From Escherichia coli O127:H6 str. E2348/69 (GTDB taxonomy: Bacteria > Pseudomonadota > Gammaproteobacteria > Enterobacterales > Enterobacteriaceae): a DNA stretch of 64,000 nucleotides. The notes beneath the pieces were generated by a model. That model saw only the letters and a list, made by a program, of their open reading frames with translations, was not told the origin of the DNA and ran no database searches. Each line of letters opens with the position of its first letter. The first letter of the stretch is position 1. The stretch lies in the NCBI RefSeq assembly GCF_000026545.1, contig NC_011601.1; one strand, 5' to 3'. Positions 24,242 to 40,092 of the stretch are shown one piece after another. The position numbers and the translations under genes are program-made.

Positions 24242-25242
24242 AGCCTTTTGCAACGGGCCTGGTGGTTGGTAAATTCGCGCCTTTGCATTGTGGTCATGAA
24301 AAGTTGATCAATACCGCACTGGCGCAATGTGAAGAACTGTTCATCATCAGTTATTCCGTGCCGGAAATGCCTGACTGTGAACCTGAAAAGCGCCTGACGT
24401 GGCTGCAAGTGCGCTTCCCGCAAGCGACGATTTTGGTACTGACGCCAGAGCTTGTTGCGCGTTATAACTTACCTGCCATACCGCATAACGATGCCGATGC
24501 CGACATCCACCGTCATTATGTGGCGACGCTGTGCCTGCAGATATTACGCTGTCGTCCACATGCTGTATTTACTGCAGAAGACTATGGCGATGGCTTTGCT
24601 AACGTGCTGGCGCGGCGTTTTGCCCAACCCGTTGAACACGTTCGAATGGCGCGCCCAGTTGGCGATGAAGCGCCTTCGGGAACGCTTATTCGTTCCGATG
24701 TTCACCGCTATCGCTACATGTTGGCGAATGATGTTTATTACAGTTTCGTTCGCCGTATCTGTCTGCTTGGTGGCGAATCTACCGGTAAAAGCACGCTTTC
24801 AAAAGCGCTGGCGGATGGGCTTGATACGGTGTATGTCGCTGAATTTGGCCGCGACTATTGGGAAGAAAAAAACGGAATCTTAACCGCGGATGATTTGTTG
24901 CATATCGCCTGCGAACAGGTACGCCGGGAACAACAAGCAGAAGCTAATCACTATCTTATATGTGACACGTCGCCACTCACGACCTTGTTCTATGCCCTTG
25001 ATCAATATGGTCATGCTCCGCAAGAACTTCATCAACTGGCGGAGCGGGAATACTCTCTGGTGGTGCTTTGCGGCGCAGAATTTCCCTTCGTGCAGGATGG
25101 CACCCGGCAAGGAGAGGTATTTCGCGCACGGCAACAGGTGTGGTATGAACAGGAATTGTCGCGCAGGAACATTCCTTATCTTTCGGTTTCGGGGCCACTG
25201 CAAGAGCGAGTGGAGCAAATTCTTCGCCAACTTCCCGACTGA
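24214..25242 (+). CDS. NadR-like bifunctional NMN adenylyltransferase / ribosylnicotinamide kinase lacking the N-terminal HTH domain (start at 24214 or 24238)
   Basis: Nucleotidyltransferase motif GKFAPLHCGH (compare NadR GKFYPLHTGH) and P-loop GGESTGKST (NadR kinase domain Walker A); 333-342 aa versus about 410 for full NadR. Confidence 0.8.
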   Translation: MAQRVANIMKPFATGLVVGKFAPLHCGHEKLINTALAQCEELFIISYSVPEMPDCEPEKRLTWLQVRFPQATILVLTPELVARYNLPAIPHNDADADIHRHYVATLCLQILRCRPHAVFTAEDYGDGFANVLARRFAQPVEHVRMARPVGDEAPSGTLIRSDVHRYRYMLANDVYYSFVRRICLLGGESTGKSTLSKALADGLDTVYVAEFGRDYWEEKNGILTADDLLHIACEQVRREQQAEANHYLICDTSPLTTLFYALDQYGHAPQELHQLAEREYSLVVLCGAEFPFVQDGTRQGEVFRARQQVWYEQELSRRNIPYLSVSGPLQERVEQILRQLPD

Positions 25243-25323: not shown

Positions 25324-26517
25324 GTGTTTCAAAAAGTTGACGCCTACGCTGGCGACCCGATTCTTACGCTTATGGAGCGTTTTAAAGAAGATCCCCGCAG
25401 CGACAAAGTGAATTTAAGTATCGGTCTGTACTACAACGAAGACGGAATTATTCCACAACTGAAAGCCGTGGCGGATGCGGAAGCGCGCCTGAATGCGCAG
25501 CCTCATGGTGCTTCGCTTTATTTACCGATGGAAGGGCTTAACAGCTATCGCCATGCCATTGCGCCGCTGCTGTTTGGTGCGGACCATCCGGTACTGCAAC
25601 AACAGCGCGTAGCAACCATTCAAACCCTTGGCGGCTCAGGGGCATTGAAAGTGGGCGCAGATTTCCTGAAACGCTACTTCCCGGAATCAGGCGTCTGGGT
25701 CAGCGATCCTACCTGGGAAAACCACGTAGCAATATTCGCCGGGGCTGGATTCGAAGTGAGCACTTACCCCTGGTATGACGAAGCGACTAACGGCGTGCGC
25801 TTTAATGACCTGTTGGCGACGCTGAAAACATTACCTGCCCGCAGTATTGTGTTGCTGCATCCATGTTGCCACAACCCAACGGGTGCCGATCTCACTAATG
25901 ACCAGTGGGATTCCGTGATTGAAATTCTCAAAGCCCGTGAGCTTATCCCATTTCTTGATATTGCCTATCAAGGATTTGGTGCCGGTATGGAAGAGGATGC
26001 CTACGCCATTCGCGCCATTGCCAGCGCTGGATTACCCGCTCTGGTGAGCAATTCGTTCTCGAAAATTTTCTCCCTTTACGGCGAGCGCGTCGGCGGACTT
26101 TCTGTTCTGTGTGAAGATGCCGAAGCCGCAGGCCGCGTACTGGGGCAATTGAAAGCAACCGTTCGCCGCAACTACTCCAGCCCGCCGAATTTTGGTGCGC
26201 AGGTGGTGGCTGCGGTGCTGAATGACGAGGCATTGAAAGCCAGCTGGCTGGCGGAAGTAGAAGAGATGCGAACTCGCATTCTGGCAATGCGTCAGGAACT
26301 GGTGAAGGTATTGAGCACAGAGATGCCAGAGCGCAATTTCGATTATCTGCTTAATCAGCGCGGCATGTTCAGTTATACCGGTTTAAGAACCGCCCAGGTT
26401 GACCGACTACGTGAAGAATTTGGTGTCTATCTCATCGCCAGCGGTCGCATGTGTGTCGCCGGGCTTAACGCGCAAAATGTGCATCGCGTGGCAAAGGCGT
26501 TTGCTGCGGTGATGTGA
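25324..26517 (+). CDS. tyrB: aromatic-amino-acid aminotransferase TyrB (397 aa, GTG start)
   Basis: Translation from (V)[13 protein letters not shown] matches TyrB. Confidence 0.9.
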
Positions 26518-26547: not shown

Positions 26548-26647
26548 TTCCTGACTCCAGCCATCCCCTACTATTCTGTCCCTTTTTTCGCCCACTTTTA
26601 CATCATCTATTTTCTATAAGTTTTTGAAAATTAGTGTTTTTAACTGT

Positions 26648-26663
26648 TGGTACGGATTGTGCA
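26648..26663 (+). promoter_or_regulatory. sigma-54 (-24/-12) promoter-like element upstream of the island E1 gene
   Basis: TGGTACGGATTGTGCA: TGG..AC at -24 and TGCA at -12 with canonical spacing, about 35 bp upstream of the E1 ATG. Confidence 0.5.
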
Positions 26664-26698
26664 GTAATGCGGCTGTCTATGACCATCAGGAGAAAAAC

Positions 26699-29443
26699 AT
26701 GGAGAACATGACCTCGCCCGGCACGCTGCTTAGTGGAGATAACGCGACCTGGCTTGAAGAGTACTACCAGACCTGGTTGCGTACGCCGGAAAAACTCCCG
26801 GAAGACTGGCGGCGTTTTTTTCTTTCACCTGAACTGACTGTCCAAAGCGTATCCGGTGATAACAACGTCAGCGGTGCGACGTTAAAAAAACAGGCTGCGG
26901 TAATACAACTGATCAATGCCTGGCGCACGCAGGGGCATCTGCGCGCAAAGCTTGATCCACTTGGTTTGAATCCCCCGGCTGACGTTCCCTCCCTCCAGCC
27001 TGGTTTTTGGGGATTAAGCGAAGAAGACTTGTTGCAGGAATTTAGCGTCACCTTTGGCGCACACACCACGCAAATGCCACTTAAGCAACTGCTTAACCTG
27101 CTAGAGCAAGCCTGGGCCGGTAGCCAGGCTTATGAACTTGCTCATCTGGAAAATCGTGAAGAAATCAACTGGTTGTTATCACGGATTGAGAGCAGCAATG
27201 CGCCACAAGCAGATGTACAAACCTGTATTGCTCGTTTTGAAAAACTGATGGCGGCAGAGACGTTAGAGCGTTATCTGCATACCCGTTATGTTGGGCAGAA
27301 ACGGTTTTCTCTGGAAGGGGGCGAAAGTGCAATCCCGGCGCTCGATACGCTGACAAAACGCCTGCGTGCGCAAGGTGTGGAGGAAATGGTCATTGGCATG
27401 GCGCACCGGGGAAGACTTAATGTTCTGGTTAATCTGTTGAATAAAGACCCGGCACAGCTTTTTGCTGAGTTTGAAGGCAAGCAGACGATCGGCAGTGGTT
27501 CAGGCGATGTGAAATACCACATGGGGTATTCCAGCAATCTGGAAACACCTGCCGGTTCGCTGCATGTGGCGCTGGCGTATAACCCCTCACATCTGGAGAT
27601 CGTGAATCCGGTGGTGCTGGGCCAGGTGCGAGCCAGGCAGGAACGCCGTGGTGAGGATGGTCAGGCAAAAGTGGTGGGCGTACTTATTCATGGGGATTCC
27701 GCGTTGGGCGGCCTCGGCGTCAACCAAACCACGTTTAACTTATCGCAGACTCAGGGCTACGGCACTGGCGGTACGCTACATCTGGTGATTAACAATCAGA
27801 TTGGCTTCACCACTTCCCGCTTGCAGGATATGCGTTCTTCACGGTACTGCACCGATATTGCCAAAATGGTAGCGGCCCCAATTATCCACGTTAATGGCGA
27901 TGACGTTGACGCTGTTTGCCAGGTAATGGAACTGGCGTGCGAATGGCGAGACACCTTCCGGCGCGACATCATCATCGATATTTGCTGCTTCCGTAAGCAC
28001 GGACACAACGAAAGCGATGAGCCACGTCTTACCCAGCCACAAATGTATCAGGCAGTGGATGCTCACCCTGGTACGCTCGCCCGTTATGGTGAATCTCTTG
28101 CCCGCCGCGGCCTGTTAACTCAGGCGCAACAAGATGAGATGACGGCACGCTATCGCGACTGGCTGGATAGCTGCCAGAAACGTGAACCGCAGCCTCTCAA
28201 ACCTGCAATTCACTCTTTTAGCGCTAACTGGTATGGGTTGACCAACCCTCACTGGAGCGCCCCGGTATCTACGGCATTGCCTCGGCAAAAGCTGGCAGCG
28301 TATGGTGAAATCATTTCTACACTGCCACCCGATGTGGTCGCACATCCTACCATTAAACGGCAACTGGCGTTACGCCAGGATATGGCCGCAGGTACTCAGC
28401 CAATAGACTGGGGAATGGCTGAAATGCTGGCCTATGCATCGCTTGTGGATGCGGGTGTTGGTGTGCGTCTTTCTGGTGAAGACTCAGGGCGTGGCACGTT
28501 CAGTCATCGCCATGCAGTGGTACATCATCAAACTGAAGCCCGTCGTTATCTGCCGTTACAGCATATCCGCGCTGGTCAGGCATCTTTCGATGTTTATGAT
28601 TCGGTGCTTAATGAAGAAGCGCTCTTAGCCTTTGAATATGGCTATTCAACGTCTGCGCCTCAGCAACTGGTTATTTGGGAAGCGCAGTTTGGTGACTTTG
28701 CCAACGGCGCTCAGGTTGCTATTGACCAGTTTATCTCGTCTGGCGAAACCAAGTGGGATCGCTATAGCGGTTTAACCATTCTTCTGCCGCATGGCTATGA
28801 CGGACAAGGGCCGGAGCACTCTTCTGCGCGTCCTGAGCGCTGGCTGCAACTGTGCGCAGAAAACAACATGCAGGTGGTGATGCCCAGTGAGTCAGCACAA
28901 ATGTTCCATTTGCTGCGCGGTCAGGCATTACGCCCAATGCGCAAACCGTTAGTGATAATGATGAGTAAGCGTTTACTTCGGTTTAAAGGCGCGATGAGCG
29001 AGCTTTCTGAATTTACTGATGGCGCTTATAAACCGGTAATCACCGATCCGCAATTGCATCAGCCCCAGAAAGTTAAGCGCGTTATTTTGTGTAGCGGCCA
29101 GGTCTATTACGACGTACTGGAAGCCCGTAAGCAGCGTGAGTGTGAAGATGAGGTAGCGATTGTTCGCCTGGAGCAACTCTACCCGTTCCCGGTCGCAGAA
29201 CTGAATGATGTTCTGGCGAGTTGGCCGAACTGCTGCGAATGGATTTGGTTGCAGGAAGAGCCAGAAAACCAGGGCGCGTGGCGGCAGATTCGTCATGAGC
29301 TGGCGGCACTGAAAATTAACACTCCTTACTGGCAGTATGCAGGCCGCCCGGCAGCGGCAGCTCCGGCGACGGGGTATGGGCGTGTACATAAACAACAAAT
29401 CGACGAATTTCTTGCTGCTGCGTTTGCAGATATTCAGCCATGA
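26699..29443 (+). CDS. 2-oxoglutarate dehydrogenase E1 component paralogue (SucA-like, 914 aa)
   Basis: Collinear similarity to SucA along the whole length (e.g. MAHRGRLNVLVN, GDVKYHMG, EAQFGDFANGAQV, LPHGYDGQGPEHSSAR); start moved to ATG 26699 downstream of the promoter motif and preceded by AGGAG. Confidence 0.9.
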   Translation: MENMTSPGTLLSGDNATWLEEYYQTWLRTPEKLPEDWRRFFLSPELTVQSVSGDNNVSGATLKKQAAVIQLINAWRTQGHLRAKLDPLGLNPPADVPSLQPGFWGLSEEDLLQEFSVTFGAHTTQMPLKQLLNLLEQAWAGSQAYELAHLENREEINWLLSRIESSNAPQADVQTCIARFEKLMAAETLERYLHTRYVGQKRFSLEGGESAIPALDTLTKRLRAQGVEEMVIGMAHRGRLNVLVNLLNKDPAQLFAEFEGKQTIGSGSGDVKYHMGYSSNLETPAGSLHVALAYNPSHLEIVNPVVLGQVRARQERRGEDGQAKVVGVLIHGDSALGGLGVNQTTFNLSQTQGYGTGGTLHLVINNQIGFTTSRLQDMRSSRYCTDIAKMVAAPIIHVNGDDVDAVCQVMELACEWRDTFRRDIIIDICCFRKHGHNESDEPRLTQPQMYQAVDAHPGTLARYGESLARRGLLTQAQQDEMTARYRDWLDSCQKREPQPLKPAIHSFSANWYGLTNPHWSAPVSTALPRQKLAAYGEIISTLPPDVVAHPTIKRQLALRQDMAAGTQPIDWGMAEMLAYASLVDAGVGVRLSGEDSGRGTFSHRHAVVHHQTEARRYLPLQHIRAGQASFDVYDSVLNEEALLAFEYGYSTSAPQQLVIWEAQFGDFANGAQVAIDQFISSGETKWDRYSGLTILLPHGYDGQGPEHSSARPERWLQLCAENNMQVVMPSESAQMFHLLRGQALRPMRKPLVIMMSKRLLRFKGAMSELSEFTDGAYKPVITDPQLHQPQKVKRVILCSGQVYYDVLEARKQRECEDEVAIVRLEQLYPFPVAELNDVLASWPNCCEWIWLQEEPENQGAWRQIRHELAALKINTPYWQYAGRPAAAAPATGYGRVHKQQIDEFLAAAFADIQP

Positions 29444-29475: not shown

Positions 29476-30630
29476 ATGATCGAAATTACTGTCCCTGTAT
29501 TACCGGAATCTGTCACGGAAGGCACGCTGACAACCTGGTGTAAACAAGAAGGCGAGCACGTAAAACGCGATGATGTGATTGCCGAGCTGGAAACCGATAA
29601 AGTCATTCTGGAAATACCGGCCCCGCACGATGGCGTGTTAAGCAATATTATCGTCAGCGAAGGTAGCACGGTCACGTCCGCGCAACTGTTGGCGCATCTT
29701 AAGCCGCAAGCTGTCATAGAAGAAACCGTCACACCAGTCACCGAAACCCTGACGATGCCTTCCGCACGGCTGGAGGCACAGCGTAGTGGTGTCGAACTTG
29801 CTGACGTTGCGGGGAGCGGGAGAAATGGACGTATCCTGAAAGAGGATGTGCAGCGCGTTACTCCTGCACCAGCCATTCAGCCTGAACGGGTGGCGGAGAT
29901 CGCGCCAGCTAAACCCTTGACACCGGGTGCTCGTCAGGAACGTCGTGAGCCGATGTCGCGCTTACGTCAGCGAATTGCTGAGCGTCTGCTGGCTTCCCAA
30001 CAAAATAACGCCATTCTTACCACATTCAACGAAGTAAACATGCAGAGCGTGATGGATTTACGCGCCCGCTGGAAAGATCGTTTTGCCGAGAAGCACGGCG
30101 TGAAGCTGGGCTTTATGTCCTTCTTTGTTAAGGCCGTTACCCGGGCGCTGGAGCGCTTCCCTGTAGTGAATGCCAGCGTTGATGGTAACGAGATTATCTG
30201 GCGTGATTATTGCGATATCGGCATTGCAGTGAGCAGCAACCGCGGCCTGGTAGTGCCTGTGTTACGCAATGCGCAATCACTCTCTTTGGTGGAAATTGAA
30301 CGGCAAATTGCCGAATACGCCACACAGGCTCGCAATGGCAAATTGCCGCTGGAGGCGTTACAGGGCGGCACGTTCTCTATCACCAACGGCGGTACTTTTG
30401 GTTCGATGATGTCAACGCCAATCATTAACCCGCCGCAGTCGGCCATTCTTGGGATGCATGCCATCACGCCGCGCCCGGTCGCAGAAAACGGCCAGGTTGT
30501 TATTCGTCCCATGATGTACCTTGCTCTCAGCTATGACCATCGCATTATTGATGGGCAGGAAGCCGTTCAGACGCTGGTGGCAATACGCGAGCTACTGGAG
30601 TCACCGGAACAACTGTTGCTGGATCTTTAA
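29476..30630 (+). CDS. dihydrolipoamide succinyltransferase E2 paralogue (SucB-like, 384 aa)
   Basis: Lipoyl domain with ELETDKV lipoyl-lysine motif; catalytic domain with [12 protein letters not shown]. Confidence 0.9.
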
Positions 30631-30641
30631 GGAGAGCGCCA

Positions 30642-32060
30642 ATGAGTACAATTTTCGATGTGGCAGTTATGGGTGGTGGGCCAGGTGGTTACGTAGCGGC
30701 ACTGCGGGCTGCGCAGAATGGGCTTTCCGTAGTATGTATTGATGATGGTGTAAATGCTCAGGGCGAACCTTCGCCGGGCGGTACGTGCCTCAATGTCGGC
30801 TGTATTCCGTCAAAATCGTTGCTGCAATCTTCCGAACTGTACGCGCAAGTGCAGCATGAGGCGAGCATTCATGGCGTTAATGTTGACGGCGTATCTTTCA
30901 ATGCAGCTGCGATGATTCAACGTAAAGACGCCATAGTAAGCCGCCTGACAATGGGCATCGGTTTGCTGTTTAAGAAAAATAAAGTGAAGCACCTGTGCGG
31001 CCTCGCAACGTTAGAACATGCTCAGGATGAGATTTGGCAATTACGTGTAAACGATCAACAAATCCGCGCCCGTAATGTGGTGATTGCAACAGGTTCTCAG
31101 CCGCGTCAACTGCCTGGCGTTACCATTGATAATCAGCAAATTCTCGATAATCGCGGCGCCCTGGCGTTAACCGCTGTGCCGCCGCGTCTCGGTGTGATCG
31201 GCGCTGGCGTGATTGGCCTTGAACTGGGGTCTGTGTGGAATCGGGTCGGTTCAGACGTCACGTTGCTGGAGATGGCGCCAACGTTCTTGCCTGCACTGGA
31301 AGCTCGCCTGTCGAACGAAGTCCGTAAAGCAATGATTGCCAGTGGGATGAAAATGCAACTGGCAGTAGAGATTGAGGCTATTGAACAACGGGATGACGGT
31401 GTGCATGTGCGCTGGCGGCAGGGTGAGAAGCGAGAAGAAAGCCGCTTCGATAAATTAATTCTTGCCATTGGACGTGTACCGCGACTTTCTGGTGTCGATC
31501 TCGTGCAACTCGGTCTTGAAGCCGATAACCGTGGCGGTATTGCCGTCGATAACTTATGCCGTACCGGGAAAGCCGGGCTGTGGGCAATTGGTGATGTCGT
31601 GCGAGGGCCGATGCTGGCGCATAAAGCGATGGCTGAAGGTGTGGTGGTTGCTGATCAAATTGCCGGACTGGCGGTAGAGCCGATTAATTTTGCGCTGATC
31701 CCTTCGGTGATTTACACCCAACCGGAAGTTGCGTGGGTAGGGGAAAACGAGGCCTCACTGAAAGCCGCTGGCAGAGTCTTTAACAAAGGAAATTCTCTGT
31801 TTGCCGGTAACGGTCGCGCCTTAGCATTAGGCCAGGAAGGTGGGCGTTGCACGTTATACAGCGATAAACACACTGACCGCGTACTTGGCGGAGCGATTGT
31901 TGGCCCGCAGGCATCGGAGCTGATCAATGAAATTGCGCTGGCGATGACTTTTAGCGCCTCTGGCGAGGATATTGTCTGTGCGATCCATGCGCATCCGACA
32001 TTAAGCGAAGTCATCCACGAAGCAGCAATGGCCTTGAATAATAAAGCATTACACGGATAA
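30642..32060 (+). CDS. dihydrolipoamide dehydrogenase E3 paralogue (Lpd-like, 472 aa)
   Basis: FAD-binding GGGPGG, redox-active disulfide motif GTCLNVGCIPSK, C-terminal HAHPTLSE. Confidence 0.9.
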   Translation: MSTIFDVAVMGGGPGGYVAALRAAQNGLSVVCIDDGVNAQGEPSPGGTCLNVGCIPSKSLLQSSELYAQVQHEASIHGVNVDGVSFNAAAMIQRKDAIVSRLTMGIGLLFKKNKVKHLCGLATLEHAQDEIWQLRVNDQQIRARNVVIATGSQPRQLPGVTIDNQQILDNRGALALTAVPPRLGVIGAGVIGLELGSVWNRVGSDVTLLEMAPTFLPALEARLSNEVRKAMIASGMKMQLAVEIEAIEQRDDGVHVRWRQGEKREESRFDKLILAIGRVPRLSGVDLVQLGLEADNRGGIAVDNLCRTGKAGLWAIGDVVRGPMLAHKAMAEGVVVADQIAGLAVEPINFALIPSVIYTQPEVAWVGENEASLKAAGRVFNKGNSLFAGNGRALALGQEGGRCTLYSDKHTDRVLGGAIVGPQASELINEIALAMTFSASGEDIVCAIHAHPTLSEVIHEAAMALNNKALHG

Positions 32061-32081: not shown

Positions 32082-33251
32082 ATGAATTTACATGAGTATC
32101 AGGCCAAATCGTTACTGGCTGGCATGGGGATGCCGTGTCCAAAAGAGATAGCCATCCAACAGATTTCGCAACTGGCAGATGCCTGGCAACATATTGCTTG
32201 CCCGAGTAAAGGCGCGGTACTTAAAGCGCAGGTACATGCTGGTGGGCGCGGTAAAGCTGGCGGCGTAAAAGTGCTTAAGCAGCTGCCGGAAGCACAGGCT
32301 TTTGTACAGCAAATGTTGGGATCGCAACTGGTGACTTATCAGACCGGGCCAGAAGGACAGTATGTCAGCAGTATTTTACTGTGCGAAAACATTTATCCGG
32401 TACGCCAGGAACTCTATTTTGGCATGGTGGTGGATCGTGAAAGCCAGCGGGTCACGTTTATTGTCAGCCCGGAAGGTGGTGTGGAAATTGAAAAAGTCGC
32501 CCATGAGACACCGGAGAAAATCAGCAGTGTCAGCATTGATCCACTGACAGGCGTGCAGCCTTGCCATATCCGAGAAATGTTTGCTGTTCTGCAACTGGAA
32601 CACGGACTATTTGCTGCCTTTAGTCGCCTGGTTAATCAGGCGTGGAAAGCCTTTAACGAACTGGATTTTGCCCTGCTGGAAATTAACCCTCTGGTGTTGC
32701 GGGAAACGGGCGAATTTATGTGTGCAGACGCGAAAGTATCGCTGGATGATAACGCGCTGTATCGTCACCCGGAACTCCAGGTGCTACGTGATGAAACCCA
32801 GGAAGATCCACGCGAAAGCCAGGCAGCGAAGCTTGATCTTAATTATGTCTCGCTGGACGGAAATATCGGCTGCATGGTCAATGGTGCAGGGCTGGCTATG
32901 GCAACCATGGACATCATCAAGCTATACGGTGAACAACCCGCAAACTTCCTGGATGTTGGCGGTGGCGCAACCCAGGAGCGCGTCAGTGAAGCCTTTCGGC
33001 TGATTGTTTCCGACGGCAAAGTGAAAGCCATTCTGGTTAATATTTTTGGTGGGATTGTCCGTTGCGACATGATCGCCAGAGCCATTATTCATGCTCTGAA
33101 TGAGGCCCGTATCACCCTGCCTGTCGTGGTGCGTCTCTCCGGTAATAACGCTGCCGAAGGGCAGCGGTTACTGGCAGAAAGTGGCCTGACGGTGGAAGCC
33201 GTCAATTCTCTGGATGATGCCGCTAAACGCATCATTGCGTTACTGAATTAA
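32082..33251 (+). CDS. succinyl-CoA synthetase beta subunit paralogue (SucC-like, 389 aa)
   Basis: ATP-grasp N-terminus MNLHEYQAKSLL, collinear with SucC. Confidence 0.9.
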   Translation: MNLHEYQAKSLLAGMGMPCPKEIAIQQISQLADAWQHIACPSKGAVLKAQVHAGGRGKAGGVKVLKQLPEAQAFVQQMLGSQLVTYQTGPEGQYVSSILLCENIYPVRQELYFGMVVDRESQRVTFIVSPEGGVEIEKVAHETPEKISSVSIDPLTGVQPCHIREMFAVLQLEHGLFAAFSRLVNQAWKAFNELDFALLEINPLVLRETGEFMCADAKVSLDDNALYRHPELQVLRDETQEDPRESQAAKLDLNYVSLDGNIGCMVNGAGLAMATMDIIKLYGEQPANFLDVGGGATQERVSEAFRLIVSDGKVKAILVNIFGGIVRCDMIARAIIHALNEARITLPVVVRLSGNNAAEGQRLLAESGLTVEAVNSLDDAAKRIIALLN

Positions 33252-33263
33252 CAGGAGGTTAAG

Positions 33264-34136
33264 ATGAGCGTTTTGATCAACAAACACACGCGGGTACTGG
33301 TGCAGGGCATTACCGGCAAAAACGGCACATTTCATACAGAGCAGGCTATTGCGTATGGCACGCAGATTGTGGGTGGAGTGACGCCAGGTAAGGGCGGGCA
33401 ACGGCATCTGGATCGCCCGGTTTTTGATTCAATGAAAGAAGCGATGCGACAAACTGAGGCTGATGCCAGCGTGATTTATGTGCCTGCACCGTTTGTGCTG
33501 GATTCTGTTGTTGAGGCTATTGAAGCTGGCGTCAAATTGGTTGTGGTGATCACTGAAGGTGTACCGACACTGGATATGGTGAAAGTTCGTCGGCTGCTTG
33601 ACTGCCACCCGGATGTGCGGCTGATTGGGCCAAACTGCCCAGGAGTTATCACGCCGGGTGAGTGCAAAATCGGGATTATGCCTGGTGAAATCCACCGCCC
33701 AGGGCGTATTGGGATTGTTTCCCGCTCCGGTACATTAACCTACGAAGCTGTAGCGCAAACCACGGCGCTGGGACTTGGGCAATCCACCTGTATTGGTATT
33801 GGCGGCGATCCGGTTCCGGGGACTAACTTTATTGATGCGCTGCGTTTATTCGAAAATGATCCGCAAACAGACGCGGTAATTATGATCGGTGAAATTGGTG
33901 GTAATGCGGAAGAACGGGCCGCGGAATTTATTCGTCATGAAATGAATAAACCGGTCGTAGGTTATATTGCCGGTGTTACTGCACCAAAAGGAAAACGCAT
34001 GGGACACGCCGGAGCCATTATTTCTGGCGGTAGCGGCAGTGCGGAGGATAAATTCCGGGCGTTCGATAAAGCAGGCATGGCATGGACACGAAATCCAGCA
34101 TTACTTGGCGAAACGTTATGGAATGTTATTAAGTAA
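33264..34136 (+). CDS. succinyl-CoA synthetase alpha subunit paralogue (SucD-like, 290 aa)
   Basis: CoA-binding N-terminus, catalytic His region (GHAGAII) conserved. Confidence 0.9.
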
Positions 34137-34154
34137 TCCATAAATGAATATCAA

Positions 34155-34178
34155 GGGAGCATATCGCTCCCTTTTTTT
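34155..34178 (+). terminator. rho-independent terminator after the SucD-like gene
   Basis: GGGAGC-ATATC-GCTCCC stem-loop followed by T7. Confidence 0.7.
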
Positions 34179-34291: not shown

Positions 34292-34307
34292 TGGCATAGC
34301 TCCTGCA
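34292..34307 (+). promoter_or_regulatory. second sigma-54 (-24/-12) promoter-like element, upstream of the transporter gene
   Basis: TGGCATAGCTCCTGCA: TGGCA at -24 and TGCA at -12 with canonical spacing, about 40 bp upstream of ATG 34348. Confidence 0.5.
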
Positions 34308-34347: not shown

Positions 34348-35847
34348 ATGTCATCAATATCCCATGGCGCACCACAAAAGCGTCGAATTATCCCTAATCC
34401 CGGCCTGTGGTTGGCGATCATTGCCGGAATTATTATTACCCTTCTGCCACTGGGCGATACCTTGCCCGTCGCCGGACAAAATATGATCGCCATTCTGGTG
34501 TTTGCCATTATTGTCTGGATCAGCGAAGCGATGGATTACACCGCCAGTGCAATTGTTATTTCCGCACTGATTATCTTTATGGTTGGTTTTGCCCCGGATA
34601 TGAATCACCCGGACACGATCCTTGGCACCGCGAAAGCGCTGAAAATGACTCTGTCGGGTTTTTCTAATTCTGCTCTGGCGCTGGTGGCAGCAGCAATGTT
34701 TATCGCGGCGGCAATGACCATTACCGGGCTGGATAAACGCATTGCGCTGTTTACTATGTCGAAAATAGGTGCCAGCAGCCGCAGCATTATTATCGGTGCC
34801 ATTGTGGTGACCATCGTCCTGAGCCTGGTCGTACCCAGTGCCACTGCCCGTACGGCTTGCGTGGTGCCGATTATGATGGGGGTCATTGCGGCATTTAAGG
34901 TGGATAAACATTCACGTTTAGCGGCGTCAATGATGATTGTTATCGCCCAGGCGACCAGTATCTGGAAAGTTGGTATTCAAACTTCGGCGGCGCAAAACCT
35001 GCTTTCTATCGGTTTTATCAATAAAACTTTCGGCGCCGGGCATTCTGTCAGCTGGCTTGACTGGCTGTTAGCGGGCGCGCCCTGGAGCCTCACCATGTCG
35101 GTGATCCTCTATTTCCTCGCACGTAAATTGTTGCCGCCAGAAACGGAAGCTGTTGAAGGGGGGAGCGAGGCCATTAAAAAAGCACTCGCAGAGTTAGGGC
35201 CAACCACCGGTAAAGAAAAACGCTTGATCGGTATTTCGCTGTTGTTACTGCTCTTTTGGTCTACTGGCGGAAAATTGCACAGTATTGATACCACCTCTGT
35301 CACCCTTGCCGGACTGGCGATTATGTTGCTGCCAGGCATCGGTGTAATGAGCTGGAAAGAGGTCGAAAAACGTGTGCAGTGGGGCACGTTGCTTATGTTT
35401 GGTATTGGTATCAGCCTGGGGTCCACGTTGCTTGATACACAGGCAGCTTCATGGATGGCGAACTATGTGGTGAAAGGTTTTGGTCTCGATGGCTTGCCAT
35501 CATTAGCCATCTTCGCGATTCTCGCCGCTTTCTTGATAATCATTCACCTGGGGTTTGCCAGTGCCACTGCGCTAACTGCCGCATTGCTGCCCATCCTGAT
35601 TAGCCTGTTAAGCAGTCTGCCGCCAGAACTCGGCGTTAACCCGGTCGGCATGACCATTCTGCTCGCCTTCAGTGTCAGTTTTGGCTTCATCCTGCCGATT
35701 AACGCGCCACAAAATATGGTGTGTATGGGTACGGATACCTTCACGCCACGCCAGTTTACCCGTGTGGGACTGTACCTGACGGTGATCGGCTACCTGTTGT
35801 TGCTACTGTTTGCCGCCACCTGGTGGAAAATTTTAGGTCTAATGTGA
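34348..35847 (+). CDS. DASS/CitT-family dicarboxylate (anion) transporter (about 499 aa)
   Basis: Polytopic membrane protein with two-repeat architecture typical of the divalent anion:Na+ symporter / CitT family; start at ATG 34348 after RBS GAGGTG. Confidence 0.8.
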   Translation: MSSISHGAPQKRRIIPNPGLWLAIIAGIIITLLPLGDTLPVAGQNMIAILVFAIIVWISEAMDYTASAIVISALIIFMVGFAPDMNHPDTILGTAKALKMTLSGFSNSALALVAAAMFIAAAMTITGLDKRIALFTMSKIGASSRSIIIGAIVVTIVLSLVVPSATARTACVVPIMMGVIAAFKVDKHSRLAASMMIVIAQATSIWKVGIQTSAAQNLLSIGFINKTFGAGHSVSWLDWLLAGAPWSLTMSVILYFLARKLLPPETEAVEGGSEAIKKALAELGPTTGKEKRLIGISLLLLLFWSTGGKLHSIDTTSVTLAGLAIMLLPGIGVMSWKEVEKRVQWGTLLMFGIGISLGSTLLDTQAASWMANYVVKGFGLDGLPSLAIFAILAAFLIIIHLGFASATALTAALLPILISLLSSLPPELGVNPVGMTILLAFSVSFGFILPINAPQNMVCMGTDTFTPRQFTRVGLYLTVIGYLLLLLFAATWWKILGLM

Positions 35848-35858
35848 GGAAACCAACG

Positions 35859-36932
35859 ATGTCATTACAAATTGCTGTTGAAAAAGTGCGTTGGTTAGCT
35901 GCCGGGCTGCTGGAACTTAATGGCTGTGATGCCGATATCGCTCAGGATGTGGCGGAACATATGATTGAAGCGGAACGTTATGGTTTTGCCAGCCACGGCG
36001 TCACGCTGCTACCGAAATATCTGGAAAATATCGCTCGTGGCGATGTAACCGCGAATGCCCGCCCGGAATGCTTAACAAGTGAAGGTAATTTACAACGTTT
36101 TCATGCCCACAATGGCTTTGGTCAACACGCCGGAAAAGTGGCGGTAAATGCTGCCATCGAACAAACAAAACACCGCGGTTTTTGCCTGTTAACGTTGTGC
36201 CATGCGCATCATTTAGGGCGTATGGGGCATTACGGGCAAATGGTTGCTGATCAAGGCCTGGCGATGCTGGCCATGAGTAACGTCACCGGGCGTCCGGCAC
36301 TGGTCGCCCCGTGGGGCGGTGCGGAACCGCGTATGACCACTAACCCTTTCTGCTTTGCCTGGCCGTTCAGTGATGGGCGTCCGCCGATTCTGGTTGATTT
36401 TGCCACCAGTAGCATGGCGCTAAATAAAGCACGGGTAATGTCGTCCACCGGGAAGCAGGCCGCGCCGGGACAATTGATCGATGCACAGGGGAATCCAAGC
36501 AATGATCCTGGGGTGTTATTCAGCAATCCTCCAGGGGCGTTACTGCCATTTGGTGAGCATAAAGGATTTGGCCTGGCACTGATGATTGAAATGATGGCGG
36601 GGATCTTATCTGGTGGTGACACGATCGCCGAAGATCATCAGACGGATGGATCTGCGCATAATCATCTTTTTGCGTTGATTATCGATCCTGATCAATTCAC
36701 CGATCTGGCAGGGGAGAAAGGGCAGTTCTTTGCGGATTATCTGTTAGCTACGCAGCCTCAACCTGGCGGCAATCCGGTGATTTACCCCGGTATGCCAGAA
36801 GCTGCCAACCGGGAACGCAATGCGAAGATGATTACGATCCCGGTATCATTCTGGTCCTGGGTAGTTGAACATTACGCCCGCAAAGGTATCGATTTGGGGT
36901 TACATCCTCAGGAATCAGCATTAGCTGGATGA
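35859..36932 (+). CDS. Ldh_2-family (malate / L-lactate / sulfolactate type) NAD(P)-dependent 2-hydroxyacid dehydrogenase (357 aa)
   Basis: Family-typical segments (GxxSHG region GFASHG, EHKGFGLAL); start placed at ATG 35859 after RBS GAGGAAA, rejecting the upstream extension that overlaps the transporter. Confidence 0.8.
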   Translation: MSLQIAVEKVRWLAAGLLELNGCDADIAQDVAEHMIEAERYGFASHGVTLLPKYLENIARGDVTANARPECLTSEGNLQRFHAHNGFGQHAGKVAVNAAIEQTKHRGFCLLTLCHAHHLGRMGHYGQMVADQGLAMLAMSNVTGRPALVAPWGGAEPRMTTNPFCFAWPFSDGRPPILVDFATSSMALNKARVMSSTGKQAAPGQLIDAQGNPSNDPGVLFSNPPGALLPFGEHKGFGLALMIEMMAGILSGGDTIAEDHQTDGSAHNHLFALIIDPDQFTDLAGEKGQFFADYLLATQPQPGGNPVIYPGMPEAANRERNAKMITIPVSFWSWVVEHYARKGIDLGLHPQESALAG

Positions 36933-38279
36933 TTCTGGTCGATAAACTTGCGGTTGAATCTGATGTTTGTTGAGTTTGTCATATAAAGTCTTGCGCGGCA
37001 GCTGTAATAGCCGCGCTGTCAAACTGACCTGGCCTTCCGTTTGTCGCAGCATATCTTCGATTAACTTTTTCTCGAAAGCATCAATGCAGGCGGTAAGGCC
37101 ACTCTCTTCTTGCTGAGTCATTGGTACTGGCTGGTGGTGGGTCAGTAAACCGAGAACAAAACGCTCTGCATTGTGTTTAAGTTCACGTACATTGCCAGGC
37201 CAACTTTGTGACTGCAACCAGGCCAGTAACATGGGAGAAATATCAGGCAGAGGACGATTATATTTTTGTGCCGCCTGACTGGCGAACCAGTAAAACAGTT
37301 CAGGGATATCTTCTCGTCGTTGGCGTAGAGGTGGAATATTCAGGCTAACCACATTCAGACGATAATAGAGATCGAGACGAAACAGATGTTCTTCGCTGCG
37401 ACGCAGTAAATCTTCCTTGGTCGCTGCAATAACACGGCAATTCACCGGAATTAATTGATTGGCACCTAATCGTTCAATGGTTCTTTCCTGCAATACACGT
37501 AGCAGTTTTACCTGCATTCCTGATGGCATTCCCTCTATTTCATCGAGAAATAACGTACCACCATTTGCATGTTCAATTTTTCCAATACGCTTTTTAACCG
37601 CACCGGTAAATGCGCCCGCCTCATGACCAAATATTTCGCTTTCAAACAACGTTTCTGGTAAGCCTGCACAGTTTAAGGCAACAAACTGCCCCTGACGGCG
37701 GGTACTCCAGTGATGCAGCATTCTGGCGACGACTTCTTTACCACAACCTGTTTCACCATAAATAAGGACATCGGCACCGGTATCTGCGACATTAAGGATC
37801 ATTTTACGCAGTTGTTGCATCTGCGGACTACGACCAATCAGCACCGGGCCATTTTCCTGTTGCAGATTCGCCAGTAATTGCTGATTTTCTAAAACCAATC
37901 GCCGTTTTTCTACCGCTCTGGCAATAATACTCAATAATTTATCTGAGCTACTTGGTTTCTCAATGAAATCGAATGCACCATTACGCATGGCATCCACCGC
38001 CATTTCCACGTCACCGTGTCCGGTAATTAAAATAACCGGAATTTTGCTATCCATTTCGTTGATGTAACTGAGGAGCTCTAGTCCTGATATTCCAGGTAAC
38101 CTGACATCGGTCAGTATAATAATGTTGGCCTGACTTTGAATAAGGGGAATACTGTGTTCTGCATCGCAACAGGAAATAACACGATAACCAGCCAGCGTGA
38201 GCGTTTGTTCACAGGCAAAACGTACATCGTCACTATCCTCAATATAAACTATAGTAATTTCACTGGATTTATTATTCAT
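36921..38279 (-). CDS. kguR: sigma-54-dependent two-component response regulator (NtrC/DctD family, 452 aa)
   Basis: Receiver domain with phospho-acceptor Asp (IILTDVRLPG), AAA+ domain with Walker A GETGCGKE and the sigma-54 contact motif GAFTGA, C-terminal Fis-type HTH; gene name from memory of the UPEC KguS/KguR system. Confidence 0.85.
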   Translation of the reverse strand: MNNKSSEITIVYIEDSDDVRFACEQTLTLAGYRVISCCDAEHSIPLIQSQANIIILTDVRLPGISGLELLSYINEMDSKIPVILITGHGDVEMAVDAMRNGAFDFIEKPSSSDKLLSIIARAVEKRRLVLENQQLLANLQQENGPVLIGRSPQMQQLRKMILNVADTGADVLIYGETGCGKEVVARMLHHWSTRRQGQFVALNCAGLPETLFESEIFGHEAGAFTGAVKKRIGKIEHANGGTLFLDEIEGMPSGMQVKLLRVLQERTIERLGANQLIPVNCRVIAATKEDLLRRSEEHLFRLDLYYRLNVVSLNIPPLRQRREDIPELFYWFASQAAQKYNRPLPDISPMLLAWLQSQSWPGNVRELKHNAERFVLGLLTHHQPVPMTQQEESGLTACIDAFEKKLIEDMLRQTEGQVSLTARLLQLPRKTLYDKLNKHQIQPQVYRPESSS

Positions 38280-40092
38280 GTTCTTCTCCCCATTCAGGCC
38301 AGGTTAATGTCATTACTGCGCCGCCTTCAGGATGATTACTGGCGTGGAGTGCGCCGTTCGAATTTCGGACAATTTCGCTGACTATTGCCAGTCCCAACCC
38401 CATTCCTCTACGTTTAGTGGTAAAAAATGGTTCAAATATGCGATCGACAACTTCAGGTGCAAAACCGCCACCGCTGTCTTTAATGGTAATAATAACTTTG
38501 TTATTTGCCTGGCGAATGGCGATATCCAGTCGTTTGTAAGAGCTACCTTCCATAGAATCTAAGGCGTTGCTAATTAAATTACTGAATATCTGTTCAAGAC
38601 CGAGCTCATCGCAATTGACAAATAACGGCATGGATGGGGCTTTTATTCGTCGCTCAATATTATTTTTCTCCATGCTGTGATTAAGTAACGCCACGGCGCT
38701 ATACATCACTTTGATGACATCGGCAGAACCTTTAGGTACGCGATGGCGCGAGGCAAATGCTTTAAGTTCGGAAATGAGCTGCGTCATCCGCTCAATCACT
38801 GAAATAATGTGTTTCAGATTCTGTTCAACCTGCGGATACATCTCTTTTTTTAGCATAGTACGCGCGTTATCAGTAAGTGCGTGAATGGCGGCTAACGGTT
38901 GATTTTGTTCATGGGCAATTTCGGTTGCCATCTGTCCAAGCGCCGCCAGTTTGCTGGACTCTGCCAGTTCACTACGCGTAATTTGTAATACTTGTTCAGC
39001 CTGACTGCGCTCTTTTATCTCCTGTATTAATTTTTGATTGATCAATTCCAGGGCAGATGTACGCTCTTTAACCTGTTTCTCTAATGTTTCATTCGCCAGT
39101 GTTAATAATTGTTGTGCATGAGATCGCATTCTCCAGTATTTAATAAATAACAAAAACAGCAGGTAAATAATTAGCGTAATGACTAACGAAATAGCCCATG
39201 ACCAGTACAGGTTATCTAAGGGGACCATAATTGTCATTTTCCAGTTAAATTCTGGAATGGCTATTTGTTGCGTATAATATTGCGGGAATAAACAGAGTTG
39301 TTCTTTTTTATCTTTCAGGAAAGTAAAATTGCTCACGGTATAACAGGGATAATAATCCGCCGGTAAAAGATTGTCGAGACTATATTGGCGGGTAGATTGT
39401 AGTTTTTGTTTTGCCTGAACAGGTAACGGTTGCAGTGTTCGCATTCGCCATGGCGATTTTGAACTTAAAAATATAATCCCATGTTCATCATTCACGATAA
39501 TATTTTCAGGACCTTCGGCCCATGCTTTTTCAATTTCATTAAGACTTATTTTTACTACTACAACACCGACAATTTTTCCTTTATCTTTTATACTTGTAGA
39601 GAGGAAGAATCCCGGTGTATTCGTAGTGCTACCAATACCGTAAAAGCGTCCATTTAAGCCAGACATGGCGTGTTTATAATAGGGGCGATAGCTATAATTT
39701 TGCCCTACATAGCTGCCGGGGTCCTGCCAGTTGCTAGAAGCGATGGCCTTACCTTGGGTATCCAGAATAAATATTGCTGCGGTTTTGAGTTGAGTATTGA
39801 AATGTGCAATTCGTTGATTGAGTTCGCTGGACATCATATCGTCAGGCGTAATTACCGCCTGACGGATGATATGGTCTGTTGAGAGCATATAGGGTAAAAC
39901 ATAAAATTGCTCGATGGTGGAATATAATGTGGACTTATACATTTCAAGCCGCATTTTATCGGTACCGGACAAGGTATTAAAACGCAAGTGCAAAAAAGCG
40001 ATTGAAACCGCGAGCATGATAAGAAAAAGTGAAATGCTTGTAATGTGAAATCGCCATTTGTTCTTAAATATATAATTCCACGATATTTTCAT
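38272..40092 (-). CDS. kguS: periplasmic-sensing histidine kinase (DctB-like, 606 aa)
   Basis: Two transmembrane segments flanking a large periplasmic domain, H-box ATEIAHEQNQPL, ATP-binding G-boxes; 8-bp overlap with the regulator gene; gene name from memory. Confidence 0.85.
   Translation of the reverse strand: MKISWNYIFKNKWRFHITSISLFLIMLAVSIAFLHLRFNTLSGTDKMRLEMYKSTLYSTIEQFYVLPYMLSTDHIIRQAVITPDDMMSSELNQRIAHFNTQLKTAAIFILDTQGKAIASSNWQDPGSYVGQNYSYRPYYKHAMSGLNGRFYGIGSTTNTPGFFLSTSIKDKGKIVGVVVVKISLNEIEKAWAEGPENIIVNDEHGIIFLSSKSPWRMRTLQPLPVQAKQKLQSTRQYSLDNLLPADYYPCYTVSNFTFLKDKKEQLCLFPQYYTQQIAIPEFNWKMTIMVPLDNLYWSWAISLVITLIIYLLFLLFIKYWRMRSHAQQLLTLANETLEKQVKERTSALELINQKLIQEIKERSQAEQVLQITRSELAESSKLAALGQMATEIAHEQNQPLAAIHALTDNARTMLKKEMYPQVEQNLKHIISVIERMTQLISELKAFASRHRVPKGSADVIKVMYSAVALLNHSMEKNNIERRIKAPSMPLFVNCDELGLEQIFSNLISNALDSMEGSSYKRLDIAIRQANNKVIITIKDSGGGFAPEVVDRIFEPFFTTKRRGMGLGLAIVSEIVRNSNGALHASNHPEGGAVMTLTWPEWGEEHE

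Follow-up and report, generated by a model that had tools for sequence, protein, structure and literature searches.

A probable E3 gene of an accessory 2-oxoglutarate dehydrogenase in the tyrB-aphA KguS/KguR island of Escherichia coli E2348/69

The housekeeping operon of E. coli has the order sucA-odhB-sucC-sucD and contains no lpd gene, and sucAB relies on lpdA, which is encoded elsewhere. This had been stated in a preliminary description of the present locus and was borne out. In E. coli O127:H6 str. E2348/69, a second gene of the Lpd type is found at positions 30642..32060, inside an operon for a paralogous complex. Why does this complex carry a dihydrolipoamide dehydrogenase (E3) gene of its own? 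The preliminary description had read a purpose from the position of the gene, namely that the paralogous complex functions when the housekeeping E3 is limiting, or that its E2 needs a dedicated E3 partner. We analysed the gene within a stretch of 64,000 nucleotides, here called the window. The gene very probably encodes the E3 of an accessory 2-oxoglutarate dehydrogenase in a KguS/KguR island between tyrB and aphA, as the third gene of five that was inherited with its block and is under purifying selection.

Identity of the gene and anatomy of its operon

The features of the island on which the analysis is based are the following.
26449..26473, + strand: KguR-binding motif TGTGTG-N13-CGCGCA, within the 3′ end of tyrB (sequence; motif as in PMC3694859)
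26648..26663, + strand: sigma-54-type promoter motif TGGTACGGATTGTGCA, with the start codon of E1 36 nt downstream (sequence reading)
26699..29443, + strand: E1, 2-oxoglutarate dehydrogenase component, 914 aa (NCBIfam NF006914, 1214.7 bits, cut-off 764; RefSeq)
29476..30630, + strand: E2, dihydrolipoyllysine succinyltransferase, 384 aa (NCBIfam sucB equivalog, 552 bits, cut-off 449)
29752..29853, + strand: E3-binding (peripheral subunit-binding) domain of E2, residues 93-126 (Pfam PF02817, 43.8 bits)
30642..32060, + strand: E3, dihydrolipoyl dehydrogenase, ORF of 472 aa with an ATG start, orthologue of C5035
30786..30803, + strand: codons of the redox-active disulfide, C49-L-N-V-G-C54 (translation; aligns with C45/C50 of E. 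coli LpdA)
31992..32009, + strand: codons of the catalytic dyad His451...Glu456 (HAHPTLSE) in the dimerisation domain (aligns with LpdA H445/E450)
32082..33251, + strand: SucC-like succinate-CoA ligase beta subunit (NF001913, 530 bits, cut-off 370)
33264..34136, + strand: SucD-like succinate-CoA ligase alpha subunit (NF004230, 470 bits, cut-off 336)
34155..34178, + strand: intrinsic-terminator-like hairpin GGGAGC-atatc-GCTCCC followed by T7, after sucD (sequence reading)
34292..34307: sigma-54 motif upstream of the second operon at 34348..36932 (sequence and pattern search)
34348..35847, + strand: DASS-family transporter of the second island operon (Pfam/NCBIfam; C5038/C5039 pair in PMC3694859)
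35859..36932, + strand: Ldh_2-family oxidoreductase of the second island operon (Pfam/NCBIfam; C5038/C5039 pair in PMC3694859)
36921..38279, - strand: KguR, sigma-54-dependent response regulator (Pfam)
38272..40092, - strand: KguS, dCache sensor kinase (Pfam)

The E3 gene lies 11 nt from the end of the E2 gene and 21 nt from the start of the sucC-like gene. Its location between the E2 and SucC-like genes was thus given correctly in the preliminary description, and the complex is genetically self-sufficient, as claimed there, in that a complete E1-E2-E3 set is encoded on the island. The E2 consists of the Pfam domains Biotin_lipoyl (residues 3-75), E3_binding (93-126) and 2-oxoacid_dh (154-382).

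The product of 30642..32060 is a 100% match to the RefSeq protein WP_000103915.1 (lpdA) of E. coli E2348/69. Against the NCBIfam model TIGR01350 (lipoamide_DH) it scored 478 bits and passed the cut-off of 408.8. The best-matching solved structures were E3s (E = 1e-139), and the top 37 structure matches bear the name dihydrolipoyl or dihydrolipoamide dehydrogenase, except for two Neisseria P64K/surface-protein chains. The RefSeq match, the TIGR01350 score and the E3 structures together argue that this is not a chance ORF. The CLNVGC motif (GGTCLNVGCIPSK), which had drawn attention to the gene as Lpd-like, occupies residues 49-54 of the translation with Cys49 and Cys54 at its ends, and the disulfide is invariant across all relatives aligned with the island E3. 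The alignment also showed conservation of the FAD and NAD GxGxxG motifs (GGGPGG at residues 11-16, and GAGVIG followed by the acidic E210, which indicates NAD preference) and of H451/E456. Pfam Pyr_redox_dim covers residues 353-462, and Pyr_redox_2 and Pyr_redox match as well.

The preliminary description had named a different flavoprotein disulfide reductase as the outcome that would speak against it, and the Pyr_redox_2 and Pyr_redox_dim fold is common to E3 and to soluble transhydrogenase, mercuric reductase and glutathione reductase, all of which gave significant HMM matches; at the level of sequence this reading is already refuted and its chances are close to nil, since the models for MerA (287.6 bits, cut-off 454), SthA (269.8 bits, cut-off 465), glutathione reductase (245.6 bits, cut-off 480) and RclA all stayed below their own cut-offs, only lipoamide_DH exceeded its cut-off, and E1 and E2 genes flank the gene. 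Judged by the same kind of evidence, the island gene is a genuine dihydrolipoamide dehydrogenase gene with a predicted NAD+-dependent activity. In the literature searched, no enzymology or biochemical report on C5035 or the island E3 was found.

A pattern search for sigma-54 promoters in the 64,000-nt window gave three matches, compared with 0.89 expected, and two of the three are located directly upstream of the two island operons (at 26648 and 34292). The hairpin at 34155..34178 would mark the end of the five-gene operon. The motif TGTGTG-N13-CGCGCA is the published KguR-binding motif of the c5032 promoter (PMC3694859).

That the operon carries its own E3 is a correct observation, but it was already described in 2013 (Cai et al., PMC3694859), and as it stood the finding adds nothing to the E3 assignment made in that work. 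In uropathogenic strain CFT073, C5032, C5034 and C5035 were named as E1, E2 and E3 homologues of a putative alpha-ketoglutarate dehydrogenase, c5032-5037 was found by RT-PCR to be one operon, and C5035 was the most induced protein, at about 25-fold (PMC3694859). KguS/KguR switch the operon on in response to alpha-ketoglutarate at low oxygen, and deletion of the operon resulted in an anaerobic growth defect on alpha-ketoglutarate (PMC3694859). The operon is alpha-ketoglutarate-induced under anaerobiosis and required only then (PMC3694859, PMC8716947). In the published mutants, c5032-5037 or c5032-5039 were removed as blocks (PMC3694859). The urinary tract is the site at which the published model places the role in the host. 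The 2013 study gives no clade placement, interface analysis or NADH data for C5035.

In the mechanism that we propose, the E3 would be expressed as the third gene of an E1-E2-E3-SucC-SucD operon that extends from the sigma-54-type promoter to the terminator-like hairpin and is, according to the literature, induced via KguS/KguR by alpha-ketoglutarate at low oxygen. E1 would decarboxylate alpha-ketoglutarate, and E2 would move the succinyl group to CoA. The FAD-containing E3 would dock on residues 93-126 of E2, which form the E3-binding domain, and re-oxidise the E2 dihydrolipoyl-lysine via Cys49/Cys54, FAD and His451/Glu456, with the electrons passing to NAD+. The SucCD step would then give succinate and ATP. 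The operon-internal E3 would have been acquired with the whole block and afterwards retained by purifying selection. We infer that it is the island E3, and not the housekeeping LpdA, that serves the island E2.

The E2/E3 docking surface and the response to NADH

Alignment with LpdA over the E2-interacting surface had been proposed as a check. An electrostatic interface between E3 and the E2 binding domain is a common feature of E3s but does not define them. In the E3 of G. stearothermophilus, Glu431 and Asp344 reportedly take part in docking of the E2 binding domain, in the structure 1EBD ascribed to Mande et al. 1996; the numbering of both residues (344 Asp, 431 Glu) was checked against the 1EBD sequence. 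As LpdA reference we used a sequence identical to PDB 4JDR. In the alignment, Glu430 of LpdA corresponds to Thr436 of the island E3:
31947..31949, + strand: codon of Thr436, the counterpart of Glu431 in the G. stearothermophilus E3 and of Glu430 in E. coli LpdA (alignment)

The island E3 carries N349 and T436 at the positions of D344 and E431, and both acidic residues are absent. The Glu431-equivalent column contains T, A or N in all nine kgu-module loci and is never Glu in the 27 proteins that are at least 58% identical to the island E3. Glu was found there in the G. stearothermophilus E3 and in 77 of 77 housekeeping-type loci, with E. coli LpdA counted. Among housekeeping E3s, LpdA and the E3 of G. 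stearothermophilus, 112 columns are conserved, and only five of these change clade-wide in the kgu type. Three of the five lose a charge (K228, K398 and E430).

The partner protein differs as well. Residue 103 in helix 1 of the E2 binding domain is Arg in nine of nine kgu-type E2s, whereas it is Glu in 60 of 60 of the housekeeping type; residue 100 is Glu in the former (9/9) and I, L or A in the latter (60/60). E. coli SucB agrees with the housekeeping type at both residues. The binding domain of the island E2 retains the equivalents of R135 and R156, two Arg residues that are usual in domains of this kind.

On sequence grounds, these changes, which are specific to the clade and affect both partners at the interface, offer a new lead that favours the dedicated-partner idea. 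According to this explanation, the docking surfaces of the island E3 and E2 would be co-adapted, and the complex would use its own E3 and neither borrow nor titrate LpdA. The loss of the glutamate in all kgu-type E3s, the three charge losses and the matching charge changes at residues 103 (Arg) and 100 (Glu) of E2 are consistent with such an insulated pair. However, all of the changes lie on one evolutionary branch, where their co-occurrence is indistinguishable from shared ancestry, and with the R135 and R156 equivalents kept, cross-binding to LpdA may persist. We therefore consider the explanation possible but rather unlikely.

A second explanation combines supply and redox tolerance. E. coli lpdA is repressed by ArcA. 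LpdA would therefore be scarce under anaerobic conditions and also inhibited by NADH, and the island E3 would be less sensitive to NADH. The idea of a limiting housekeeping E3, as put forward in the preliminary description, agrees with the published anaerobic, alpha-ketoglutarate-induced expression (PMC3694859) and with the requirement for the operon only under anaerobiosis (PMC8716947). NADH inhibition of the E. coli pyruvate dehydrogenase acts via Lpd, and the E354K exchange lowers the NADH sensitivity (review, PMC7240943). At this position the island E3 carries a glutamine:
31719..31721, + strand: codon of Gln360, at the position of Glu354 of E. coli LpdA (alignments)

On the other hand, the LpdA-354 column, which is Q, H or D in kgu-type E3s, is S, D, T or H in the housekeeping E3s of the clade. 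Most of these are non-Glu as well, which argues against Gln360 as an anaerobic signature. The conservation of H322 in the island E3 also speaks against an altered response to NADH. Gln360 had been considered as a signature of NADH tolerance and was downgraded because the column also varies in aerobic housekeeping relatives. Altogether, the explanation by supply and redox tolerance seems doubtful to us.

The furthest-reaching proposal that the alignments suggest would be that E2 and E3 of the kgu type are co-adapted to each other and partly insulated, without E3 exchange with the housekeeping PDH and OGDH, and that the E3 may tolerate a high anaerobic NADH/NAD+ ratio. We offer this tentatively, with the balance tilting against it. 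If the changes resulted in specificity for the partner or in tolerance of NADH, this would contribute to an explanation of how an oxidative step of the TCA cycle works anaerobically in the host, and the changes would be a natural template for the engineering of NADH-tolerant or orthogonal 2-oxoacid dehydrogenase complexes. An insulated pair would be a natural case in which two 2-oxoacid dehydrogenase complexes are wired orthogonally within the same cytoplasm.

Inheritance, selection and redundancy

Of 77 related loci for which the upstream sequence was long enough, 76 show the order E1-E2-E3(-SucC-SucD). The loci of the genome scan were selected with peptide patterns, and most of this sample comes from Rhodocyclales. 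In Neisseriales, the housekeeping TCA clusters have the order sdh-gltA-sucA-sucB-lpd-sucC-sucD. Since the same gene order is present in relatives including these housekeeping clusters, the E3 came with the block by inheritance. An operon-internal E3 is the normal arrangement and not a special one. Of the preliminary description, the E3 identity, the location and the complete set hold, whereas the purpose that had been read from the operon position is less well supported, since the position itself is ordinary.

The island E3 shows 53% identity to the Laribacter E3, compared with 38% to E. coli LpdA, and for E1, E2 and SucC the similarity to Neisseriales (Laribacter) is only slightly higher than that to the E. 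coli housekeeping proteins. A Neisseriales origin of the whole block was considered and not retained, as clear support was obtained for E3 only, with E1, E2 and SucC nearly equidistant from E. coli and Laribacter. The nine-gene kgu module was found in Citrobacter, E. albertii, Pectobacterium, Entomohabitans and Vibrio. Among complete E. coli genomes, the island E3 is present in 1045 of 5426 (about 19%), the island sucD likewise in 1045, and at least 80% of the 13.9-kb island in 1043. About one fifth of these genomes (19%) thus have two OGDH-type complexes and two E3s that are 38% identical. A search of plasmids gave no evidence for plasmid carriage of the module, as the two full matches, E. 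coli "plasmid" records of 27 kb and 834 kb, look like chromosomal pieces.

Housekeeping LpdA occurs in all E. coli and might in principle work with the island E2, whose binding domain retains the two Arg residues named above. The island E3 might be a redundant passenger, a legacy of the acquired block that adds nothing beyond LpdA and persists through its position in the middle of the operon. In favour of this, the operon-internal position is ancestral, and databases contain decayed island variants in which deletions fuse E3 to neighbouring genes (P0020, P0021, P0024, P0025, P0031). These variants, however, represent decay of the whole island and not a selective loss of E3. The gene is intact in nine of nine kgu-type modules from several genera, with all catalytic residues kept. 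Its dN/dS was 0.147 in the comparison with the ST131 allele and 0.087 in that with C. koseri, a range of about 0.09-0.15 that is similar to that of E1, with dS saturated at the divergences compared. The island E3 is kept under purifying selection, and a redundant passenger is quite improbable. The preferred reading is that of a block-inherited E3 that functions in the accessory complex.

Comparison with known E3 systems

The island corresponds to c5032-c5041 of CFT073. The E3 is identical to C5035 at 469 of 472 residues, the island is inserted at the same place between tyrB and aphA, the nine genes follow in the same order, and E2348/69 has the published KguR-site motif upstream of E1. Both strains have E1-E2-E3-SucC-SucD, transporter-Ldh_2 and, on the opposite strand, KguR-KguS. 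The KguR accession (WP_001060859.1) is the same in both strains, as is that of SucD. The differences are the host strain, a uropathogen in the case of CFT073 and an enteropathogenic strain in the case of E2348/69, and three amino acids in the E3.

The nearest housekeeping clade is formed by the OGDH-operon E3s of Neisseriales and other Betaproteobacteria (for example Laribacter hongkongensis 'LpdA2'), with 53-56% identity; 6AON, 5U8U, 1LPF and 3LAD are solved relatives. The housekeeping genes have the local order sucA-sucB-lpd-sucC-sucD, and their E3 has all catalytic residues in common with the island E3. Unlike the island genes, they sit in an sdh-gltA-suc cluster that has a 61-aa ORF between sucB and lpd and is without KguSR, transporter and Ldh_2 genes. 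The housekeeping E3 also still has the Glu for contact with the E2 binding domain, whereas the island E3 has lost it.

E. coli LpdA (PDB 4JDR) belongs to the same enzyme family, with the same fold and catalytic residues, and serves SucAB in the same cell. It is only 38% identical to the island E3 and matches it with 290 bits, compared with 469 bits for the best E3 structure. It is encoded outside the suc operon, and its Glu430 and Glu354 are replaced by Thr436 and Gln360 in the island E3.

A further operon-internal E3 that serves one complex beside a general E3 is LpdV of the bkd operon of Pseudomonas putida. It differs from the island E3 in that its complex acts on branched-chain 2-oxoacids and in that it belongs to a different E3 subclade. 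The structure of P. putida LpdV, 1LVL, is a weak match to the island E3 (253 bits).

The island E3 gene and its operon

The reading frame at 30642-32060 (+) starts with ATG and has 472 codons in the ORF list of the window. Its translation contains GGTCLNVGCIPSK with Cys49 and Cys54. The E2 gene (29476-30630), which has a GGAG ribosome-binding site ahead of it, ends 11 nt 5′ of the E3 gene, and a SucC-like gene (32082-33251) starts 21 nt past the E3 stop. Frame and sequence thus agree with the preliminary description in coordinates, redox motif and position between the E2 and SucC-like genes. The only curated cut-off passed by the protein was that of lipoamide_DH (TIGR01350; 478 bits, cut-off 408.8). 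It scored 287.6 with the MerA model (cut-off 454), 269.8 with the SthA (soluble transhydrogenase) model (cut-off 465), and well under each cut-off with the glutathione reductase, RclA and mycothione reductase models. The E3 assignment therefore survives the refuting test set beforehand, a different flavoprotein disulfide reductase; the MerA, SthA and glutathione reductase types are ruled out by these scores. Pfam domains were Pyr_redox_2, Pyr_redox and Pyr_redox_dim. The nearest solved structures are all E3s, led by 6AON (469 bits) and followed by enzymes from Pseudomonas and Azotobacter; the housekeeping E3 of E. coli, LpdA (4JDR), reached just 290 bits. Alignment revealed two GxGxxG motifs, an NAD-type Glu210, Cys49/Cys54 and a His451/Glu456 dyad. 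The identity of the gene as an E3 is secure.

Features of the island (genes as in RefSeq)
Between tyrB and aphA, + strand: E1, odhB, lpdA, sucC, sucD
Second set, + strand: DASS-family transporter, Ldh-family oxidoreductase
Opposite strand: sigma-54-dependent regulator, sensor kinase
26449-26473: KguR motif TGTGTG-N13-CGCGCA, as published, within the 3′ end of tyrB
26648-26663: sigma-54-type motif TGGTACGGATTGTGCA, 36 nt 5′ of the E1 ATG 26699
34155-34178: hairpin and T-run, past sucD
34292-34307: second sigma-54-type motif TGGCATAGCTCCTGCA, ahead of the transporter gene

A degenerate sigma-54 pattern matched three times in 64 kb (0.89 expected), and two of the three matches are the motifs at 26648 and 34292. 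The promoter motif, the terminator-like hairpin and the spacing place the E3 gene in the middle of a tightly packed five-gene unit. The mechanical ORF list starts E1 at TTG 26624 (939 aa), and this extension (26624-26698) contains the sigma-54 motif 26648-26663. ATG 26699 with its good ribosome-binding site supports the annotated 914-aa start. G+C is 41% in the kguS sensor-kinase region (38001-40000) versus about 51-53% in the E1-SucD operon, which suggests differing histories of the regulatory and enzymatic parts. The Ldh_2-family gene (35859-36932, +), orthologue of C5039, overlaps the convergent kguR by 12 nt. The top NCBIfam model of its product, YbiC-type malate/lactate/ureidoglycolate dehydrogenase, gave 276.8 bits, under the cut-off of 336, and C5039 is of unknown function according to the 2013 paper (PMC3694859). 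That it acts as a 2-oxoacid reductase removing NADH from the island complex is speculation.

Gene order in related loci

The E. coli housekeeping cluster is sucA-odhB-sucC-sucD without lpd, confirming that the housekeeping suc operon, unlike the island, has no lpd of its own. Beyond Escherichia, the closest relatives of the island E3 are found in Klebsiella indica, Citrobacter koseri and Brenneria (77-79%), followed by Pectobacterium, Entomohabitans, Gibbsiella and a Vibrio (59-64%). Housekeeping E3s of Neisseriales (53-56%) rank after these. C. koseri carries the identical nine-gene module (E1-E2-E3-SucC-SucD, transporter, Ldh_2, KguR, KguS) at the same tyrB/aphA site, Pectobacterium carries it at a different site, and in one Vibrio it is rearranged. 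Laribacter and an uncultured relative show sdhCDAB-gltA-sucA-sucB-(61-aa ORF)-lpd-sucC-sucD. The order E1-E2-E3 was observed at 76 of the 77 loci with sufficient upstream sequence, among these four contexts and 80 loci obtained by scanning a single genome of each species; the sample was picked by peptide patterns and is biased, with Rhodocyclales predominant. In all nine kgu-type modules E3 lies between E2 and SucC. An operon-internal E3 is therefore odd only as seen from E. coli. The island operon has its E3 because this operon type always carries one; a standard operon type was inherited, which accounts for the arrangement. The E3 does lie inside the operon as described, but its position is a weaker clue to purpose. 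The island E3 is 53% identical to the Laribacter E3 versus 38% to E. coli LpdA; this signal is clear in E3 alone, as E1, E2 and SucC are just slightly nearer to Laribacter than to the E. coli housekeeping proteins.

The 61-aa ORF between sucB and lpd is conserved in Neisseriales-type housekeeping clusters (9795-9980 in locus L006, 8816-9001 in L091) and had no Pfam match. The island lacks it, with an E2-E3 gap of 11 nt. One kgu module lies on a contig binned as 'Flavobacteriia' (JABXHW010000047.1, locus L013); the module shares an identical E2 binding domain with Vibrio sp. Y2-5, and the contig is probably mis-binned.

Proposed reasons for a separate E3

Of the two purposes proposed earlier, a dedicated E2 partner would possibly mean a re-wired E2-E3 interface and an insulated pair. 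In the G. stearothermophilus E3/E2-binding-domain complex (1EBD), the E3 residues Asp344 and Glu431 reportedly contact three arginines of the E2 domain as pairing partners, Arg135, Arg139 and Arg156 (Mande et al. 1996). The 1EBD protein sequence has Asp at 344 and Glu at 431, and in an alignment including it Glu431 corresponds to LpdA Glu430 and island Thr436. This column holds T, A or N in 9/9 kgu-module loci and Glu in none of 27 database proteins at least 58% identical, whereas Glu occupies it in 77/77 housekeeping-type loci (E. coli LpdA counted) and 83/85 more distant proteins. Five of the 112 columns common to housekeeping E3s, LpdA and the G. stearothermophilus enzyme are altered throughout the kgu clade; of these five, only Glu430 is fully invariant in housekeeping loci (76/76). 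Three of the five changes, at K228, K398 and E430, each take away a charge. On the partner side, residue 103 of the E2 binding domain is Arg in 9/9 kgu-type proteins versus Glu in 60/60 housekeeping-type proteins, and residue 100 is Glu in 9/9 versus Ile, Leu or Ala in 60/60. The kgu-type domain still has the residues equivalent to Arg135 and Arg156, and E. coli SucB follows the housekeeping type. Loss of Glu in this putative docking column, in step with changes in the E2 domain, is the look expected of a re-wired interface. However, these changes represent a single evolutionary branch and are indistinguishable from shared ancestry. The suggested alignment with LpdA did yield a candidate difference on the putative E2-facing surface (Glu430 to Thr436).

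ArcA represses lpdA. The other proposal, that the housekeeping E3 is limiting under the working conditions of the island, fits the published anaerobic, alpha-ketoglutarate-specific role (PMC3694859). Lpd is the NADH-sensitive component that holds E. coli PDH inactive anaerobically, and E354K relieves this inhibition (review PMC7240943). In the alignment, Gln360 of the island E3 occupies the Glu354 position; since most housekeeping relatives likewise lack Glu there, Gln360 would be a weak lead only to NADH tolerance.

Distribution and relation to the published island

The E3 gene is maintained, with dN/dS values of 0.147 (ST131 allele) and 0.087 (C. koseri) that resemble those of E1 (0.165 and 0.074). 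In a set of 5426 complete E. coli genomes, the E3 gene is present in 1045, the island sucD likewise in 1045, and at least 80% of the entire 13.9-kb island in 1043; presence is essentially all-or-none. Five database proteins (P0020, P0021, P0024, P0025 and P0031) are chimeras joining the island E3 to other island genes, with SucD (E. fergusonii), E2 (E. albertii), Ldh_2 and the DASS transporter as partners. These chimeras point to internal deletions and hence to island decay in some lineages; shortened or fused E3s look like whole-island decay. Two E. coli records labelled plasmids (NZ_CP048308.1, 27 kb, and CP054241.1, 834 kb) hold the island at 98-99% identity; they probably represent pieces of chromosome or wrongly assigned replicons and no mobile carriers.

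Differences between genomes were also observed nearby. Genes for a pnuC-like nicotinamide riboside transporter and an 'AAA family ATPase' (23684-25242, +) lie between alr and tyrB. The pair is also present in CFT073, alr and tyrB are adjacent in C. koseri, and the pair has the look of a further small accessory insertion beside the island. An ISEc13 (IS4-like) transposase (~8135-9508) separates lamB and malM in E2348/69; these are adjacent in CFT073, without ISEc13. The E2348/69 annotation gives qorA (~20043-21031, -) as a pseudogene with a frameshift; the gene is intact in CFT073, where it is followed by a five-gene insertion absent from the window (FAD oxidoreductase, MFS transporter, enoyl-CoA hydratase, CoA transferase, LacI regulator).

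The window matches E. coli E2348/69 at 100%. Gene order in uropathogenic CFT073 is the same, the E3s are identical at 469 of 472 residues, and the locus is the KguS/KguR island of CFT073. Cai et al. 2013 described C5032, C5034 and C5035 as homologous to alpha-ketoglutarate dehydrogenase E1, E2 and E3, with 55% similarity for E3 (PMC3694859); our BLASTP against LpdA gave 38% identity and 55% positives. The strongest induction of any protein (~25-fold) was that of C5035, which led to the discovery of the island, and c5032-5037 form one operon (PMC3694859). KguS/KguR mediate anaerobic induction of the island genes by alpha-ketoglutarate, and deletion of island genes impaired anaerobic growth on alpha-ketoglutarate and mouse urinary tract colonisation (PMC3694859). 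A 2021 follow-up keeps the E1/E2/E3 assignment (PMC8716947). A full-text literature search on the locus tags found no study devoted to the E3 itself. Since the island was published with C5035 as E3 homologue, the finding as first worded has been known since 2013. Compared with this record, the new element here is the clade-specific pattern at the putative docking surface.
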